From Candidatus Thorarchaeota archaeon (lineage in GTDB: Archaea; Asgardarchaeota; Thorarchaeia; Thorarchaeales; Thorarchaeaceae): 13,620 bases of DNA. Under the pieces are notes generated by a model. That model did not search any database and was not told where the DNA came from. It saw only the letters and a list, made by a program, of their open reading frames with translations. A program made the translations under genes and the position numbers. This document shows positions 1,129 to 9,088 of this stretch, one piece after another. Each line of letters begins with the position of its first letter. Position 1 is the stretch's first letter. Location: the NCBI GenBank assembly GCA_003345595.1, contig PRDI01000112.1, forward strand, positions 1-13,620. The letters run 5' to 3'.

Positions 1129-1959
1129 ATGCCGCTAGACGTGTCTAAGATAAGGTATGTTTCTTTGATTCGTCTTGAGGGCGGTGAATCAATCCTAAAC
1201 ATACCATACGCCGAGATGACTGTCGATCCGGACCTTATCGCAGGTTTCGTCACGGCGGTGATTATCTTTGCCAAGACACCGATAAGGACGATCCGGAAGG
1301 CGGCGTACGACATACTCATAGAAGTAGGCGAGACTGTTCTCGTGCTCCTTGTAGTTGACCCAGTTCCGGACGAAGCTCCCTACCGGGAACCGCTCAAGAG
1401 AATTCTAGGCCGCGTAGAGCTGGAACTTGGAGACAAAATCAAGGCCTTCGAAGGGGACATTCGGCGATTCAGAGAATTCGCCCTGCCGATACTCGAGGAG
1501 TTTCCGTTCTATGATGCAGACATCAACCTAGTCCCCATGCGTCGGAAGGACGGCATACCTGTGCCCTTCCGTGTGGGCACTATCGACAGCCGCCTTGAGA
1601 AGCTCGAGGCATTCACCAGTGGAAAGCGCACAATCGGAGAGATAATGGATCTCATCGGTCTGCCAGAAGTGGAGGTTCGGGCTCTTGTTTCAATCCTCTA
1701 CAAGTACAGGTGGATTGATTTCAGGAAGCGCTTGACTGAATCTGACCGACTGGTTCGGCGTGAGTGTTCGCGTCAGGTATTACAGAAGCTGCTATTGGAC
1801 TATGGTGACGACGTCGAGTACCTGTTGAGTGCCTTTGACGGTATGAAGCAGGTCAGAGATGTGCTGGGTTCTCTACAGCAATATGACAAGGGCGCCATCT
1901 GGTTTCTGATCAATAAGCTCGTCGAAGTTGGTTGCTTGAGTGTAGTCACTGGAGCTTAG
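1129..1959 (+). CDS. Longin-domain + tandem winged-helix protein, NPRL2/NPRL3-like (paralog B)
   Basis: 276 aa with SD AGGTGA. Collinear with paralog A (26 of the first 40 aligned residues identical, e.g. IPYxEMxVDPDL; later GDIRxFREFAL). Winged-helix repeats FTSGKRTIGEIMDLIGLPEVEVRALVSILYKYRWI and AFDGMKQVRDV...LINKLVEVGCL. Confidence 0.7.
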   Translation: MPLDVSKIRYVSLIRLEGGESILNIPYAEMTVDPDLIAGFVTAVIIFAKTPIRTIRKAAYDILIEVGETVLVLLVVDPVPDEAPYREPLKRILGRVELELGDKIKAFEGDIRRFREFALPILEEFPFYDADINLVPMRRKDGIPVPFRVGTIDSRLEKLEAFTSGKRTIGEIMDLIGLPEVEVRALVSILYKYRWIDFRKRLTESDRLVRRECSRQVLQKLLLDYGDDVEYLLSAFDGMKQVRDVLGSLQQYDKGAIWFLINKLVEVGCLSVVTGA

Positions 1960-2777
1960 AGTGGCACATCCATGCCTGGAATGCCCACAACGTCACTCCT
2001 GCATTGCTTGCAGTTCTGAAACTGGTTAATGTGGACCATGGCGTTCGTTCTTGCCTGCGCCAGTTCCATTGATGTGGGCGGCCGGCGACTTGACATGTTT
2101 GCATTCGGCACCAACGGGATGATGTTCTGTAGCTTAGCACCTGCCTCGGCGACGGCGCGCGAAAGGACACTTATTTCGGAGTCGTTAACACCGGGTATTA
2201 GTACGCTGTTCACTCTCACATGAATCCCCAGAGCACTGGCATCCCTTATCCCCTGTAGCTGCAGCGGTACCACCTTCTTGCCGAGTCTAGGCGCAAGAGT
2301 TCTAATTCCATCCAGCAGCGCCCATTCATAAATCAGGTCTGCAGTAGAGGATAGAGCAGCACTCATCGATACTGTAACAGTCTTGACACCAAGACACACC
2401 AGGCGAGAAGCCATCTCAGAGAGCAGGAAGCCATTGGTGCTCAAGCAGAACTCGACATGAGGCCTAAGATGCTTCACCCTTTCGAAGACTTCAAACGTTG
2501 TTGGACTCGCCAAGGCATCCCCCGGACCGGCAACTGCCACTATGTGAAGGTTGGGTCTTGAATCCATCTCAAGGACTGCTCTTTGAACCGCTTCGAAAGG
2601 TGTCATTATTCTTGCAGCATAACCAGGATGGATGGTATGACACGAAGTAGAGAGAGAATGACTGCAGTAGGCGCATTTCGCGTTGCAGACAGAAGCTACC
2701 GGGAGGTGGATTCGCTCCCATGCCTGACTGCACTTGTTTGACCAACATGGATGAAAGTCATATGGATACTCATTCAT
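1956..2777 (-). CDS. nifB: NifB-like radical SAM protein (stand-alone SAM domain, divergent)
   Basis: 273 aa with HPC, RIHLPVA, CNAKCAYC (CX3CX2C), AGPGDALA, CLSTNG, VNSVLIPGVND, NIIPL and C-terminal CKQCRSDVVG. These match the NifB family, but the ExRP and TxTxN motifs are altered. Confidence 0.85.
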   Translation of the reverse strand: MNEYPYDFHPCWSNKCSQAWERIHLPVASVCNAKCAYCSHSLSTSCHTIHPGYAARIMTPFEAVQRAVLEMDSRPNLHIVAVAGPGDALASPTTFEVFERVKHLRPHVEFCLSTNGFLLSEMASRLVCLGVKTVTVSMSAALSSTADLIYEWALLDGIRTLAPRLGKKVVPLQLQGIRDASALGIHVRVNSVLIPGVNDSEISVLSRAVAEAGAKLQNIIPLVPNANMSSRRPPTSMELAQARTNAMVHINQFQNCKQCRSDVVGIPGMDVPL

Positions 2778-2789
2778 CGACCATATCGC

Positions 2790-3200
2790 TCAGATGAGTT
2801 CTTGGAGGAGTCGACCAGCTTCTCGGGCAACACGCTTAGCATCGTTAAAAACCAGACCTATCTTCGCGTTCTCCGGGGAAGTGACAGTCAACAGGTATCC
2901 ACCGGTCACCGCAAGTACTAGAGTATTCCCCCCTTCGCCCTCAACTATGATCGACTTCAAAGAACCTTGCCGCAGTTCTCTCATGACCTGTTCGGCTGCA
3001 GAGTGAATGCCAGCCACCATAGCAGCGACGGCAGCGTCTTCTGTGCCCGCGTGGAAGTAGCTCACGACGGGATGACCTTCGACTGTGAAGACCGCTGCGC
3101 CAAGGATTGGAGAGTTGAGGCTCAGATCTCTAAGTAGCTCCTTTAGAAGACTCGGCACGTTATGAGCTCCCTGTGGGTTCAGGTGCCTGGTTTCTGTCAC
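2790..3200 (-). CDS. Roadblock/LC7 (MglB/LAMTOR-like) domain protein
   Basis: Typical roadblock pattern ILGAAVFTVEGHPVVS...VAAMVAGIHSAAEQVMRELRQGSLKSIIVEGEGGNTLV...LTV...AKIGLVFND. An alternative GTG start at 3158 is preceded by GGGAG. It ends 12 bp before the nifB-like start, so co-transcription is likely. Confidence 0.9.
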   Translation of the reverse strand: MTETRHLNPQGAHNVPSLLKELLRDLSLNSPILGAAVFTVEGHPVVSYFHAGTEDAAVAAMVAGIHSAAEQVMRELRQGSLKSIIVEGEGGNTLVLAVTGGYLLTVTSPENAKIGLVFNDAKRVAREAGRLLQELI

Positions 3201-3308: not shown

Positions 3309-4316
3309 CTAGCTAGTCAGCCTCAGTGACGTCACTGAGTCGCTATACAGCAGGTTCGTTGGCACCTTCATGATCCTGCGAACCTGAGTGGCTTGTTCGC
3401 TTAGTCCTGCTTTCTCCAGCATGTCGGCCAGCTCCATGCCTGTTGTTATCGCCAGCGCCTTCAGCGGTTTCGCTTGACGACAAGACTCAATCATCTCATC
3501 CGCAGGAACGACCTTGCACCGTAAGTTGATTCCCCGGACTTTCTCCAGCTGTTTGATGCCCTTCTTGGCAATTCCTCTGATCTCTCTTTGTTCCTCGGTG
3601 AACGTCTTCCTTTTCGCAATTCTCTCGAGTCGAGCGATGCCCCGTCCAATCAGATCCTCTGAAGTTAGCTGAGCGCCATAGAGTGAACGGACTGTCTTCA
3701 TCGTCGTAGTAACGAGCCAGGCAGAACCGTACGCCTCCTGGTACCTCATCGCCTTGACAACTTCAGATTCGCTCAGGAGAGTTACTGAACGGTAGCCCTT
3801 ATACTCGACACAGAGTGTCCAAGGTGGGTCATGATGCGTGATTATCAGATCGGGCGTGAGTCCCTCACCAGTCGTTGGAACACTCGTGCTGACGTCAGGG
3901 AACAGGTGAGAAACGAGCGCCAAGAACGACTGATGGAAGATGTTGTGGCGAAGATTCCTCGCCTCCTGAGGATGTCTGACACCTGCCTCTTGGTACAGCA
4001 CAGGCATCTCGCCTTTCCTTCCAGTGAGCTGACTGACCTGACTCTTGGTTGTTAGTCGCCCTCGCGACTGGTTATACCTTACAAGCCGGACTGCCGCCTC
4101 ATCTGCAATGAGATCGAACACCACCCTCCCGGTAGCTGATTCGCCGGCCTTCCCGTCCTCGCTCTCCCTGCGCCTAGCCTCTGCTTCAGCCCAGTCAATG
4201 ACTCGTTGGGCATCGTCTCCAAGCAGGCCTATTATGGACTGTAGCTTCTCCTGCAGGCCGTGTTTGTTGACGTACCTTCTCAGAGGCGTACTGTAGGTGA
4301 CCTTGAAACGCGTCAC
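3309..4316 (-). CDS. Hypothetical protein with PD-(D/E)xK restriction-endonuclease-like domain
   Basis: Motif GLTPDLII...LCVEYKGY...EVVKAMRY...AWLVTT. GTG at 4316 is preceded by GGAGTGA; the ORF extends upstream to another GTG at 4346. Confidence 0.65.
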   Translation of the reverse strand: MTRFKVTYSTPLRRYVNKHGLQEKLQSIIGLLGDDAQRVIDWAEAEARRRESEDGKAGESATGRVVFDLIADEAAVRLVRYNQSRGRLTTKSQVSQLTGRKGEMPVLYQEAGVRHPQEARNLRHNIFHQSFLALVSHLFPDVSTSVPTTGEGLTPDLIITHHDPPWTLCVEYKGYRSVTLLSESEVVKAMRYQEAYGSAWLVTTTMKTVRSLYGAQLTSEDLIGRGIARLERIAKRKTFTEEQREIRGIAKKGIKQLEKVRGINLRCKVVPADEMIESCRQAKPLKALAITTGMELADMLEKAGLSEQATQVRRIMKVPTNLLYSDSVTSLRLTS

Positions 4317-4362
4317 ATGCTCACTCCTTGACAAAAGCCAACTCACTGTGCGGCTGGCACTC

Positions 4363-4929
4363 TCAGAAGATATCCTTGATGAGCCTCACTTCTTGCGTCG
4401 CTTCCTCGTCGTAGGAAACAAGCTGGGCGTTCCGCAAATCATGGATAGCCTTCATGATCGCAGTGGACATTATTCCCGTGCTCGACTCTAGGTTCTTCCT
4501 GGTGATTGCAGTCTTAGTGTTGTGTAAAGTATAAAGCACGCGTGCATGTGGCTTGCCGCCGAAAACGGTTTCAATCAACGTTATGTATATCGCAAGCAGG
4601 TCACTTACGTCGACCTTCTCCTTCAGCTTATCCTTCTCCGTTGATGCCTCTCTATACAGTTCGGACACCCGTTGCAGCTGCTCGGTTATCTGAGCCATCT
4701 CGGCTTTCAATTCATCACGTTCCTTTGTCACTGAATCAACTACGCCTGACGTCCGCTCAGACTGAGCAAGCTTCTCTTTCAAGCTCGAGACCTCGTCAAC
4801 AGTGCGCGTCAGCTTGCTGTCGGCCTCAGCTTTCTGCCGCTTCGCTGTTTCGAGTTCATCTGCAAGCTTCGCGACTGATGTCTTGAGTCCGTCGATTTGT
4901 TCAAACACTTTCACTCTATCGGATGACAT
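4363..4929 (-). CDS. Coiled-coil protein with C-terminal winged helix-turn-helix
   Basis: 188 aa. About 105 aa of heptad-like K/E/L-rich helix, then PHARVLYTLH...ITRKNLESSTGI...IMKAIHDLRNAQLVSYDE, a wHTH pattern. SD-like GTGAGG upstream. Confidence 0.7.
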   Translation of the reverse strand: MSSDRVKVFEQIDGLKTSVAKLADELETAKRQKAEADSKLTRTVDEVSSLKEKLAQSERTSGVVDSVTKERDELKAEMAQITEQLQRVSELYREASTEKDKLKEKVDVSDLLAIYITLIETVFGGKPHARVLYTLHNTKTAITRKNLESSTGIMSTAIMKAIHDLRNAQLVSYDEEATQEVRLIKDIF

Positions 4930-4963
4930 ATGGCTGGCCTCACAGAATCATAGGCAGAGCCGC

Positions 4964-4977
4964 TTTATATGAGTTTC
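4964..4977 (-). promoter_or_regulatory. Putative BRE-TATA promoter for the coiled-coil/wHTH and nuclease genes
   Basis: Minus strand reads GAAACTCATATAAA, about 35 nt upstream of ATG 4929. Confidence 0.5.
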
Positions 4978-5077
4978 ATATCTTAGCTCCTGCATGTGAC
5001 CTTGACATACCGGGTGTGCTTGCCGTCAAACTCAGCCAATTGCGACTCGAGGGCGGCGTCCTCCTCAAATCCACACT

Positions 5078-5986
5078 CTACGCGAAGAGCAATGGAACAA
5101 GTACATAGCCCATTATCAGGAGCACAACCATAACAGACATCTGCAGCGCCCAAAGTTTCTTTCTCCACATGAATATCTTGGCACCGTCGAGAGGGGGAAA
5201 CGGAATCATGTTAAACAGCCCCAACATGGCGTTGAGTATAATTGCCCACCTCAGAATGGGGCCGAATGGGAAATGAATGCCACTCATAGCGAATGCAGAA
5301 ACAACTGTGATTACAAGGAGCCCAGAAGATATGATTGCATTCGAGAGCGGGCCTGCGAACGTTGACTTGGCGGCGTGATCAGGGTTCCCCGACATCTCGG
5401 TGAAGACCGCGCCTGTCCCGAACACGGGTACCGAGAGAAGAATGGCAAATGCGGACAGGTAGTACCCATAGGTGGTCATCCGGAACTCACTCCACATCCC
5501 ATAGTGCTGAGCTACGAGCTTGTGAGCCATCTCGTGAATTACAAACGAGGAGAGAAATACCACGACAAGCACCACAGGATACCACCAGTAGGCTGATGTC
5601 AGATAGTCGGCTACAACAGGCAGAGCCCCGAAGATGCCGTACGGACTTCCAAATAGGGAGAGAGCTACGAGCGTTACAAGTGCGCCTGCGATGAGAAGGT
5701 CTCTGATTTCCTTTCGAGAGAACCTACTCTTTCTTTCTGCTCTACGCACTTGAGGAATCCTTCGAGGAGGCGTGGGGGCTGTGACGTTCTCCTCTTCCTC
5801 CTCGTCCTCCTCTTCATACTCACCCGTGAATGAGTCTGCGATTTTTTTCCTTGCATCCTGTCTTGCTCTCTGCAGACTTGGACATCCATGACTCTCTGGC
5901 AATCTGTGTTCAGAGCAGTATGACCCGTTGCAGTAGGGACAGGTGAAGAGAAGTTCTTCTTGGCCACAGAGAGTACATCGTGCCAT
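5078..5986 (-). CDS. AN1-type zinc finger fused to an M50 family (site-2) intramembrane metalloprotease
   Basis: N-terminal CTLC...FTCPYCNGSYCSEHRLPESHGC (AN1 zinc finger), an acidic linker EEEDEEEEE and several TM segments. HEMAH (HExxH), AGPLSN and NMIPFPPLDG (NxxPxxxxDG) are the M50 motifs. Confidence 0.92.
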   Translation of the reverse strand: MARCTLCGQEELLFTCPYCNGSYCSEHRLPESHGCPSLQRARQDARKKIADSFTGEYEEEDEEEEENVTAPTPPRRIPQVRRAERKSRFSRKEIRDLLIAGALVTLVALSLFGSPYGIFGALPVVADYLTSAYWWYPVVLVVVFLSSFVIHEMAHKLVAQHYGMWSEFRMTTYGYYLSAFAILLSVPVFGTGAVFTEMSGNPDHAAKSTFAGPLSNAIISSGLLVITVVSAFAMSGIHFPFGPILRWAIILNAMLGLFNMIPFPPLDGAKIFMWRKKLWALQMSVMVVLLIMGYVLVPLLFA

Positions 5987-6898: not shown

Positions 6899-9088
6899 AT
6901 GACGGGAGAATCAGTTCGTTTGAAGGTTGCTGCAGCAATGCCAAGGGATCAGGGTCGTGGCATTGTAAGACTAAACACCGAAGTGCGAAGCCAGCTCGGC
7001 GTCGGGTCAGGAAGCTATGTGCTCGTCAAAGGACAGAGGGAAACTGTCGCTGTATGCTGGCCAAGCCTGAAAGAGGATGAAGCCATAGACATGATCAGGA
7101 TGGACAGCCTCATCAGAACCAACGCAGGCGTGAAACTAGGAGACGTTGTCGAGATTAGCAGTGTAACCGTGCCCGATGGAACTCGAGTTGTTCTGGCGCC
7201 CAGCCAACCCGTCAGGTTTCAGCCAGGCTTCGAGGAGTACATCAAGCAACAGATCATAAACAGACCAGTCACAAGGGGGGATCTTCTCCTTATTGCCTCC
7301 ATTGGACAGGGTCTCCAGTTCACCGCAACCGCAGTCGCTCCGAGCAAACATGTTCGCCTTACCCCTGCGACAAATGTCGAAGTGTTGACGAAGCCTGCAT
7401 CGGCTGAAGAGGTGTCAATACCGCAAGTGACATACGAGGACATTGGTGGCCTCGGAAAGGAACTGCAGAGAATTCGCGAAATGGTAGAGTTGCCAATGAA
7501 GTCCCCAGAGCTGTTCAAGCGTTTGGGTATCACTCCGCCAAAGGGAGTGCTGCTCATGGGGCCGCCTGGTACTGGCAAGACTCTCATCGCAAAAGCAGTA
7601 GCACATGAGTCAGGTGCAAACTTCAAGACGATCAACGGGCCTGAGATCATGTCGAAGTTCTATGGTGAGTCTGAACAGAAGCTGAGAGAGGTCTTCGAGG
7701 ATGCTGAGAAGAACGCTCCCAGTATCATATTCATTGATGAGCTGGACAGTATTGCCCCCAAGCGAGCAGACGTGACTGGAGAAGTCGAGCGAAGGGTGGT
7801 CGCGCAACTGCTTGCGCTCATGGATGGCCTCCAAGCTCGGGGACAGGTCATTGTCATTGGTGCCAGCAATCGGCCTGATGACATCGACCCTGCGCTGAGA
7901 AGACCGGGCAGGTTCGACAGAGAGATTGAGATTGGCGTCCCTGACAAGAAGGGCCGCTTGGAGATACTCCAGATTCACACAAGATCTATGCCATTGGAAG
8001 AAGGCATAGACCTCGAGAGGCTTGCGGCAATAACCCATGGCTTCGTGGGTGCCGACCTTGCCGCGCTCGCAAGAGAAGCGGCCATGCAAGCATTACGCAG
8101 AGCACTCCCGCATGTGGACCCTGAAACCGGTGACATCCCTCCAGAGATACTCAACAGCCTCTATGTCACAAAGGCAGACTTCGACCTAGCCCTGTCAGAG
8201 GTTTCGCCGTCAGCTCTACGGGAGGTCCTGGTTGAGAAGCCAAATGTGCGCTGGGACGACATTGGAGGACTTGCCAAAGTGAAATCCCAGCTGAGAGAGG
8301 CCGTTGAAGCGCCCCTCATGCATCCAGACGTATACAGTGGTATGGGTATCCGAACCCCCAAGGGCATTCTACTCTTTGGACCGCCGGGAACCGGCAAGAC
8401 TCTGCTCGCAAAAGCAGTTGCCACAGAGAGCGAGGCGAATTTCATCGCCATCAAAGGCCCGGAGATGTTTAACAAGTATGTGGGCGAGTCGGAGAAGGCT
8501 GTTCGCGAGATATTCAAGAAAGCCCGGCAGACTGCACCGTGCATCCTATTCTTCGATGAGATTGATGCAATCCTGAACACTCGCGCATTGCGCTCTGACG
8601 ATTCAGGTGTCAGTCAGAGGATCATAAATCAGTTCTTGGCAGAGATTGATGGCATGCAGACACTCCAGAATGTCCTGGTGATTGGGGCGACAAACAGGGC
8701 AGACATGCTTGACCCAGCTGCACTGAGGCCGGGCAGGTTTGACGCAGTGCTTTTTGTACCTCCACCTGACATGGCAGCCAGATTAGAGATCCTAAAGGTT
8801 CACACAAGAAGGATGCCTCTCTCGAAGGACGTGAACCTAGAGAAGCTTGCAGAGATGACCGAGGGTTTCTCGGGTGCGGATATTGAAGGACTATGCAGAG
8901 AAGCGGCCATGTCTGCTGTCCGAGATGACTGGAAGGTCAAGCCAGTCCAGATGAAGAACTTCGAGAGTGCACTAAAGGAGATAAGGCCGAGCATCATGCC
9001 TGAGGACCTCAAGAGATTCCAAGAGATGGCAGAGCTCGTCCTCCGACGTCAGCCACAAAGAACCGAAACTCTCCCCGGGTATGTATAG
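6899..9088 (+). CDS. cdc48: CDC48/p97/VAT family double AAA+ ATPase
   Basis: 729 aa. N-domain with [10 protein letters not shown] and [17 protein letters not shown]. Two Walker A motifs (GPPGTGKT), Walker B motifs IIFIDE and ILFFDE, SRH motifs ALRRPGRFD and ALRPGRFD, and a C-terminal ...PGYV. Confidence 0.98.

Follow-up and report, generated by a model that had tools for sequence, protein, structure and literature searches.

A NifB-like radical SAM protein with altered signature motifs in one Thorarchaeota family, and the search for a client

Known NifB systems and the Thorarchaeota gene

NifB builds the iron-sulfur-carbide core of nitrogenase (NifB-co or L-cluster), and NifX-like proteins are the usual carriers. 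Here, we describe a NifB-like radical S-adenosylmethionine (SAM) gene found in a 13,620-nucleotide stretch of DNA, which we call the window. The window is contig C112 of a Thorarchaeota metagenome-assembled genome of 2.73 Mb that is 83% complete. An earlier reading of the letters (the original prediction) had singled out this gene as an orphan NifB homologue with altered signature motifs that may build a metallocluster for a client other than nitrogenase, or may act as a sensor.

The residues that NifB uses have been described in structural detail. Five K-cluster ligands are strictly conserved in MthNifB (C18, H31, C115, C260 and C263), K192 and N194 hold the bridging sulfide that is the proposed methyl acceptor, and a mobile loop provides both a Cys capping the SAM cluster and a Glu serving as the K1 cluster's labile fourth ligand (Jenner et al., PMC8179604). 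When either the Glu or the Cys of this loop is replaced, NifB-co synthesis is abolished and SAM cleavage persists (PMC8179604). Six fingerprint motifs have been put forward for NifB, namely HPC, Cx3Cx2C, ExRP, AGPG, TxTxN and Cx2CRxDAxG (Arragain et al., 2017, PMC5715403).

Until 2025 the 8Fe carbide cluster made by NifB was thought to be restricted to nitrogenase; since then it has also been observed in the MCR activation complex, where McrC/Mmp7 host the L-clusters (PMC12176620). The NifB homologues of non-diazotrophic methanogens and of alkane and methane oxidisers are the proposed suppliers of these L-clusters (PMC12176620). Other homologues, NflB, MarB and IsrB, belong to gene clusters of group IV nitrogenase-like systems (PMC13474568). 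NifB occurs widely across TACK, Asgard and Euryarchaeota, and the targets of many homologues are unknown (PMC12176620, PMC13474568); in the words of a 2026 review, many target "archaeal proteins of unknown identity" (PMC13474568). Our literature search found no paper treating a Thorarchaeota NifB clade, its signature or its context.

Family assignment, cluster ligands and conservation

A Pfam scan of all open reading frames (ORFs) in the window matched the NifB-like ORF to the radical SAM superfamily (PF04055). Against NCBIfam the protein scored 201.5 bits (E 2e-59) with TIGR01290, the nifB model, which is far above any other model in that library. The second-best model, MoaA (TIGR02666), reached 57 bits. 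The nearest solved structures are three archaeal NifB proteins, aligned over the whole chain with E values of 1e-50 to 1e-52 (HMMER against the PDB), and identity to NifB (6Y1X, 7BI7, 7JMA/7JMB) is 34–36%. Judged by these scores, the resemblance to NifB is far beyond chance.

The AlphaFold (AF2) model of the protein, built on 66 homologues, has a mean predicted local distance difference test (pLDDT) score of 91.4. The predicted model superposes on NifB (7bi7) with a template modelling (TM) score of 0.91 and a root mean square deviation of 1.8 Å over 265 columns, the N- and C-terminal straps included, whereas the best non-NifB fold gave a TM score of 0.6. As in archaeal NifB, the radical SAM domain stands alone. 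Residues 43–48, the counterpart of the mobile loop of NifB, are the sole stretch with a pLDDT below 50, which is expected because the loop is mobile. MoaA (GTP 3′,8-cyclase) is similar in having a radical SAM core and an additional C-terminal cluster. However, it lacks the N-terminal HPC/HLP stretch, its model scored far lower, and a true MoaA is encoded separately in genome G022. This latter protein, at 370 bits, exceeds the curated MoaA cut-off; the best scores in the window's genome and in G012 are 113 and 92 bits and do not. Molybdopterin synthesis may thus vary within the family.

The public gene calls for the ORF (P0002) and for its two closest relatives (P0003 and P0004) start internally, at M58 or at the position of I49, and so drop the HPC, HLP and CX3CX2C motifs. 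As orthologues align from residue 2–4 and the first 57 residues carry conserved motifs, we take the ATG at 2777 as the real start. Several homologues carry the Joint Genome Institute (JGI) name "nitrogen fixation protein NifB". Such names, together with shortened gene calls, can yield false predictions of nitrogen fixation for Asgard genomes.

Motif positions were verified by translating their coordinates (Table 1), and their conservation was counted among 121 close homologues, almost all of them labelled Thorarchaeota; we refer to this group as the Thor clade. The HPC motif, the His of RIHLP, the CX3CX2C motif, AGPG and the Cys of CLSTNG, all listed as intact in the original prediction, were each seen in the translation. 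HPC is kept in 117 of the 121 homologues, which are all those that cover the N-terminus (the other four are truncated calls), and the His of RIHLP is present in every homologue that covers its position (118/121). The SAM-binding AGPG is mostly SGPG in the clade (consensus SGPGEPLAN). Likewise, the counterparts of the five K-cluster ligands (C11, H24, C111, C256 and C259) and N190 are invariant wherever a Thor homologue covers them. The one variable position is 188, the counterpart of K192 in NifB: it is Lys in 117 and Arg in 4 of the 121 sequences, the window's lineage having the Arg, next to an Asn at 190 in all 121. Thus, the earlier statement that the auxiliary-cluster Cys residues are mostly kept while the ExRP loop is changed applies to the whole clade, and extends to the His ligand.

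In the loop itself, the ExRP motif reads TIHP at 2625–2636, precisely as predicted. The loop Cys (C46) is retained, the Glu is replaced (T48), and so is the Arg (H50, Lys in most of the clade). H47 is conserved and lies directly after the loop Cys, just as the Glu follows the Cys in M. thermautotrophicus NifB. Across the 121 homologues the counts are 106 for C46, 113 for H47, 72 for T48, 73 for Lys at position 50 and 119 for P51, giving the consensus C-H-T-S-K-P-G. At the ExRP column (consensus T-S-K-P) Glu is not among the five most frequent residues.

Two further fingerprints are changed. TxTxN had been read as TVTVS (2367–2381), which is two residues out of register. The segment matched to the motif in both HMMER alignments with NifB structures is TVSMS, in which the second Thr and the Asn are both Ser, and so the missing Asn stands. 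The Asn position is Ser (S139) in 104, Asn in 12 and His in 5 of the 121 homologues, and the consensus of the segment is S/T-V-S/T-M-S. The C-terminal motif reads CKQCRSDVVG with an Asn before it, as predicted. Its C, C, R, D, V and G residues are each found in 121/121 homologues, the Val in place of Ala among them, and position 255 is His in 98 and Asn in 6. The protein thus carries three of the six fingerprints (HPC, Cx3Cx2C and AGPG). In summary, HPC, CX3CX2C, AGPG, CxSTNG, the five K-cluster ligands, the loop Cys and K/R-x-N are shared with NifB. The differences are that the Glu and Arg of ExRP have been lost (T-x-K/H-P) and the loop Cys is followed by a conserved His, that TxTxN has become (S/T)xSxS and that DAxG has become DVVG.

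The original prediction of an orphan homologue with altered motifs holds; it treated a single gene, and the changes mark a whole conserved clade. More than 100 Thorarchaeota homologues have the altered motifs in common (C-H-T-S-K-P-G, S-V-S-M-S and CRSDVVG), and since the changes are conserved clade-wide rather than random, they do not reflect decay. A search of 1.84 billion cluster representatives gave scores of 265–290 bits for the Thor clade, then 207 bits, and then about 190 bits for everything else. No close relative was found in one metagenome scan. In the phylogeny that had been called for, the Thor clade is monophyletic, with a Shimodaira-Hasegawa-like approximate likelihood ratio test value of 97 in a quick maximum likelihood tree and support of 99/100 in a careful tree under the posterior mean site frequency (PMSF) model, where its stem is about 1.0 change per site long. 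It falls outside the clade of NifX-fused and NifN-fused NifBs. That canonical clade was marked by the fused sequences and by named Methanotrichaceae and Methanoregulaceae loci; short-peptide matching found no sequence near-identical to a solved NifB among the library representatives. Constraining the Thor and canonical clades together costs 14.4 log-likelihood units (approximately unbiased (AU) test, p = 0.043), which is marginal for a grouping chosen after seeing the tree.

The scores against TIGR01290 are graded. This NCBIfam equivalog model has a curated cut-off of 343.65 bits, which the stand-alone nitrogenase-type NifBs pass at 357–367 bits (Methanoregulaceae 357, Methanotrichaceae 367) and the NifB-like protein of the window misses by 140 bits. 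Between these lie Methanoperedens, Methanomethylicus and Methanofastidiosum (261–294 bits), other Asgard lineages (279–293 bits) and short bacterial homologues (260–267 bits). A typical Thor member scores 235 bits, and with its 201.5 bits the window protein is at the bottom, the Thor scores being the lowest among the NifB-like lineages scored.

The gene was found in 63 of 76 sampled genomes of the same GTDB family (21/24 in a smaller sample). Twelve of the 13 family genomes lacking it are less than 90% complete. In the thirteenth (G046) the flanking longin homologues lie on short contig pieces and the locus looks fragmented. Elsewhere in the phylum-wide sample there were only six other matches, with 36–41% identity, in three other families.

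Compared with its two relatives of 87% identity (P0003 and P0004), the window protein has 29 differences, and these fall in columns that vary within the clade. In this sub-lineage the mean conservation is 0.33–0.39 at substituted columns and 0.66–0.67 at unchanged ones (p = 3e-6 and 4e-9). The ratio of nonsynonymous to synonymous substitution rates (dN/dS) is 0.23 in the sole unsaturated orthologue pair; synonymous sites are saturated in nearly all others. This pattern of substitutions is that of a gene under purifying selection. The original prediction had named a decaying gene, with a dN/dS near 1, as an outcome that would speak against it, and we give such decay next to no probability. Of the 77 highly conserved columns, the window protein does differ from the consensus in 6 (median 1, maximum 12), the public gene calls shorten the ORF, the copy of genus-mate G003 is frameshifted, and genus-mate G001 shows no copy. 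However, the six departures are conservative and common to P0003 and P0004, the shortened calls are start-site errors, the frame is intact with all ligands, and the substitutions avoid conserved columns. The identity of 52% to a genus-mate is within the 45–60% between genera that is normal for the family. For the same reason, and as the end branch is near the median in length, a strong acceleration on the window's branch was considered and dropped. Frameshifted copies occur in two of the 63 matching family genomes, G003 and G054, with frameshift sites near residue 102–108 and at 164/165 (G003:C4:270770–271577, L024 7992–8814; G054:C87:7050–7851). They could be assembly errors or a real pseudogene or local loss. 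From the sequence comparisons we conclude that the gene is an intact member of a separate branch of the NifB family that is specific to one Thorarchaeota family.

The search for a client and the proposed function

Scans of all window ORFs with Pfam and NCBIfam found no nif genes and no NifX domain. This confirms the predicted absence of nifH/D/K/E/N and NifX from the window, and the orphan status extends to the family. No PF00148 protein was found in the window's own genome and no NifH above the cut-off; its best match to the NifH model (PF00142) is sub-threshold, at 22.8 bits against a cut-off of 25 bits. Proteins of the NifD/K/E/N type (PF00148) were found in none of 61 family genomes, 23 of them of high quality. 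A complete nif set elsewhere, which the original prediction had named as evidence against itself, was thus found neither in this genome nor in the family. McrC/Mmp7 (PF04609) was found over the cut-off in none of 41 family genomes, of which 20 are of high quality. The controls were detected as expected, and the PF04609 control was positive in both methanogens.

The proposal of a non-nitrogenase client is therefore in agreement with the absence of nitrogenase-type proteins, although it overlooked the MCR activation complex as a second known class of client. The Thor proteins resemble MCR-type NifBs in being archaeal, in consisting of a stand-alone radical SAM domain, in scoring below the TIGR01290 cut-off and in occurring in a nitrogenase-free genome. 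In contrast to the Thor proteins, P0123 (from a cluster with a Methanomethylicus protein in it) and P0128, both from MCR-bearing lineages, have retained TxTxN and CRxDAxG as well as the Arg-Pro of ExRP (KCEFRPG and ANENRPG), the MCR-bearing lineages, with their 261–294 bits, form another clade, and McrC/Mmp7 was not found over the cut-off in the 41 Thor family genomes. Compared with NflB, MarB and IsrB, the product is similarly uncertain and some of those proteins too consist of the radical SAM domain only, whereas they lie beside nflH/D/K and the Thor gene has Roadblock/LC7, longin/winged-helix and nuclease-like neighbours. A nitrogenase-like system, in the form of a compact nflD (PF00148)–nflH (PF00142)–NifB-like cluster adjoining a flavodiiron-like (ODP/flavodoxin) gene, was seen in another Asgard family (G087; L036, C18, 5914–8837), which shows that the same search approach is able to detect nfl genes in Asgard genomes. 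A second orphan NifB-like lineage was found in a different Asgard family, at L037 (G098:C6) 7995–8798 and at L038 (G113:C17). The two genomes are 100% complete and 8–11% contaminated, and neither PF00148 nor PF04609 was found in them. The loop sequence of this lineage is YHAFRPS and its C-terminal sequence CRADVIE, and its neighbours differ (an integrase, GcvH and SepSecS).

Could the protein be an ordinary NifB, with nitrogenase, nitrogenase-like or MCR-activation partners encoded in stretches of the genome that were not assembled? The assembly has a completeness of only 83%, and JGI applies the NifB name to several homologues. Against this stand the empty partner searches across the family, the high-quality genomes included, the 140 bits missing to a cut-off that stand-alone nitrogenase-type NifBs pass, the three altered fingerprints, and the position outside the canonical clade, though the joint grouping was rejected marginally and post hoc. 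We regard this explanation as very hard to credit.

NifX-like proteins (PF02579) are present in 36 of 41 family genomes in 1–5 copies, and their presence does not track the NifB-like gene. They take the form of tandem pairs of about 125–160 amino acids (aa) and of a fusion of about 430 aa (G044:C118:31040–31730, G022:C1:1365059–1365340).

We consider it an even call that the protein is a working NifB paralogue, one that would bind a SAM cluster and K-type clusters, carry out NifB-like cluster chemistry with an altered gating loop, and serve a client of neither known class. The cluster of the CX3CX2C motif would bind and cleave SAM. A K1-type [4Fe-4S] cluster would be held by C11, H24 and C111 and a K2-type cluster by C256 and C259, with R188 and N190 positioning the bridging sulfide. 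From these K1-type, K2-type and bridging-sulfide sites we infer that an 8Fe core may be fused or modified, with or without insertion of a carbide. The Cys of the "stopper" loop is kept and would cap the SAM cluster; the Glu, a transient K1 ligand in NifB, is lost, and the His beside the loop Cys probably replaces it as a ligand. Because the His would take the role of the Glu, the gating of cluster loading would differ from that of NifB. The product would then pass to a client, if one exists, that belongs neither to the nitrogenase-like D/K/E/N proteins nor to McrC/Mmp7, and the NifB-like gene would be expressed together with the Roadblock/LC7 protein encoded upstream.

A number of observations weigh against this proposal. 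No candidate client was identified, and PF02579 was not found in the window's genome or in G002. Three of the six fingerprints are altered (ExRP, TxTxN and Cx2CRxDAxG). Loss of the loop Glu could mean that no L-cluster is made, because NifB variants of the loop Glu or Cys lose NifB-co formation (PMC8179604). The deep placement of the Thor clade varies: two quick trees place it as sister to all the remaining NifB-like sequences, whereas the careful PMSF tree groups it, weakly, as sister to a second Asgard lineage. To these come the two frameshifted copies and a sister-family locus that has the neighbouring genes without the NifB-like gene (see below).

Other radical SAM enzymes that have extra clusters use them as auxiliary clusters. 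The protein might be a radical SAM enzyme on a NifB scaffold that acts on a non-cluster substrate, with the clusters at the K1 and K2 sites auxiliary or sacrificial, for example donating sulfur or conducting electrons. We hold this to be unlikely, while giving it some weight. Three fingerprints are changed clade-wide, NifB variants that have lost the loop Glu still cleave SAM (PMC8179604), the long stem suggests a shift in function, and the client searches for an 8Fe cofactor came back empty. However, the residues that contact the K-clusters in NifB are conserved, including the K/R-x-N for the bridging sulfide, and the predicted model shows no domain beyond the NifB fold that would serve a macromolecular or small-molecule substrate. 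If instead the protein is a working NifB paralogue, it may make an L-cluster-like 8Fe cofactor for a third class of client protein; we put this forward tentatively.

The genomic neighbourhood

The features of the locus are listed in Table 1. In the Thor loci the order of genes is zf-AN1/M50 protease, TopoVI B and A, coiled-coil protein, a protein of about 335 aa, Roadblock/LC7 and the NifB-like gene, followed, in convergent orientation, by two paralogues of about 280 aa, DUF2797 and another radical SAM gene. In most genera TopoVI B/A separate the M50 protease from the coiled-coil gene (L017 2771–5717), a position from which they are missing in the window's genus (window 4929–5078, G002, G003) and in G010. 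A neighbourhood of 15 genes is syntenic family-wide.

Table 1. Coordinates of the NifB-like gene, its motifs and its neighbours in the window.
Feature	Position	Strand	Remarks
NifB-like radical SAM gene	1956-2777	-	Stop-free frame, 273 aa; ATG start at 2775-2777
HPC (residues 9-11)	2745-2753	-	C11 = NifB C18, K1 ligand bridging the K-cluster (PMC8179604)
RIHLP	2700-2714	-	H24 = NifB K1 His ligand, H31 in Mth numbering (PMC8179604)
CX3CX2C radical SAM cluster motif, CNAKCAYC (residues 31-38)	2664-2687	-	From translation and clade alignment
Flexible loop CHTIHPG	2622-2642	-	Counterpart of NifB loop Cys and ExRP
AGPG (residues 83-86)	2520-2531	-	SAM-binding GGE-type motif
CLSTNG	2430-2447	-	C111 = NifB K1 ligand C115 (PMC8179604); Cys in 121/121
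TVSMS (T135-V-S-M-S139)	2361-2375	-	HMMER-aligned to NifB TxTxN
R188-V-N190	2208-2216	-	Counterpart of NifB K192/N194 (PMC8179604)
NCKQCRSDVVG	1983-2015	-	C256/C259 = NifB K2 ligands C260/C263; Ala to Val
Roadblock/LC7 gene	2790-3200	-	PF03259, E 9e-12; directly upstream of the NifB-like gene
345-aa protein, no Pfam/NCBIfam family	3309-4346	-	Co-directional, upstream; order conserved in all Thor-type loci
Coiled-coil protein gene	4363-4929	-	Co-directional, upstream; order conserved in all Thor-type loci
Longin-like and winged-helix tandem paralogues	~124-978 and 1129-1959	+	Convergent to the NifB-like gene

The Roadblock stop codon lies only 12 nt ahead of the NifB-like ATG, and the gap is 6–15 nt in most of 11 orthologous loci. 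Because of this spacing, the two genes are probably co-transcribed. On the other side, the last 4 nt of the second longin paralogue are shared with the end of the NifB-like gene. The two paralogues are 37% identical to each other, and the pair was found in 43/43 family genomes. The AF2 model of the second one (pLDDT 90.8) finds its best PDB matches in NPRL2/NPRL3/Npr2/Npr3 of GATOR1/SEA (Foldseek E 2e-7, TM 0.3–0.39), with longin and roadblock domains ranking after the NPRL2/NPRL3 chains in that search. Pfam yielded a sub-threshold DUF742 match for the first paralogue and no match for the second, and orthologues of the family have weak winged-helix matches that are mostly sub-threshold. In residues ~125–340 of the 345-aa protein, weak structural matches to Mrr-cat/PD-(D/E)XK nucleases were obtained in the ESM Atlas (TM 0.3–0.5), and the protein may have a PD-(D/E)XK/Mrr-like fold. 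Its H125, H134, H138 and C277 do not vary between orthologues, and 12 of 13 orthologues have C289. Conserved Cys/His cluster sites were looked for in the neighbours: none occur in Roadblock, and the few in the other proteins follow no recognisable pattern.

The sister-family genome G025 (96% complete) shares the gene order coiled-coil, ~335-aa protein, Roadblock and longin/winged-helix, the last as a single gene, and has about 59 bp in place of the NifB-like gene (L127, C21, 8801–9177), and no NifB-like gene was found elsewhere in this genome. As the same locus exists there without the gene, the neighbouring module is independent of it. The NifB-like gene was either gained on the stem of the family or lost in the sister family.

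Proteins with Roadblock and longin folds typically regulate small GTPases. The NifB-like protein could be a regulatory or sensing subunit, reporting SAM, iron-sulfur or redox status to the Roadblock and NPRL2/3-like longin proteins, which is the second of the two options in the original prediction. The tight gap to Roadblock across genera and the tail-to-tail arrangement with a tandem pair whose model best matches NPRL2/NPRL3 of GATOR1 would fit such a role, as would the folds themselves. However, since family-wide synteny takes in the whole region, being neighbours says little by itself. G025 keeps its module without the gene, and the full conservation of catalytic and cluster residues suits an enzyme at least as well. 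We find this role improbable. A bolder form of it, in which the NifB scaffold has been recruited as a SAM- and iron-sulfur-dependent sensor feeding a longin/Roadblock module that is related in fold to eukaryotic GATOR1/Ragulator, seems to us highly improbable, and we rank it below the supply of an L-cluster-like cofactor to a third class of client. If true, it would be an archaeal counterpart to the sensing of metabolites that lies upstream of Rag-type signalling.

With a gene that is near-universal and under selection in one Asgard family, that keeps its cluster ligands and for which searches of family genomes turned up none of the known clients, the Thor clade offers a clean test case among the NifB homologues. 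Its difference from NifB sits exactly in the loop that gates cluster loading. The Thor loop is therefore a natural variant that bears on the proposed role of the NifB loop Glu, and a member of this clade could reveal a third use of NifB-type cluster fusion and carbide chemistry, or another capability of the scaffold.

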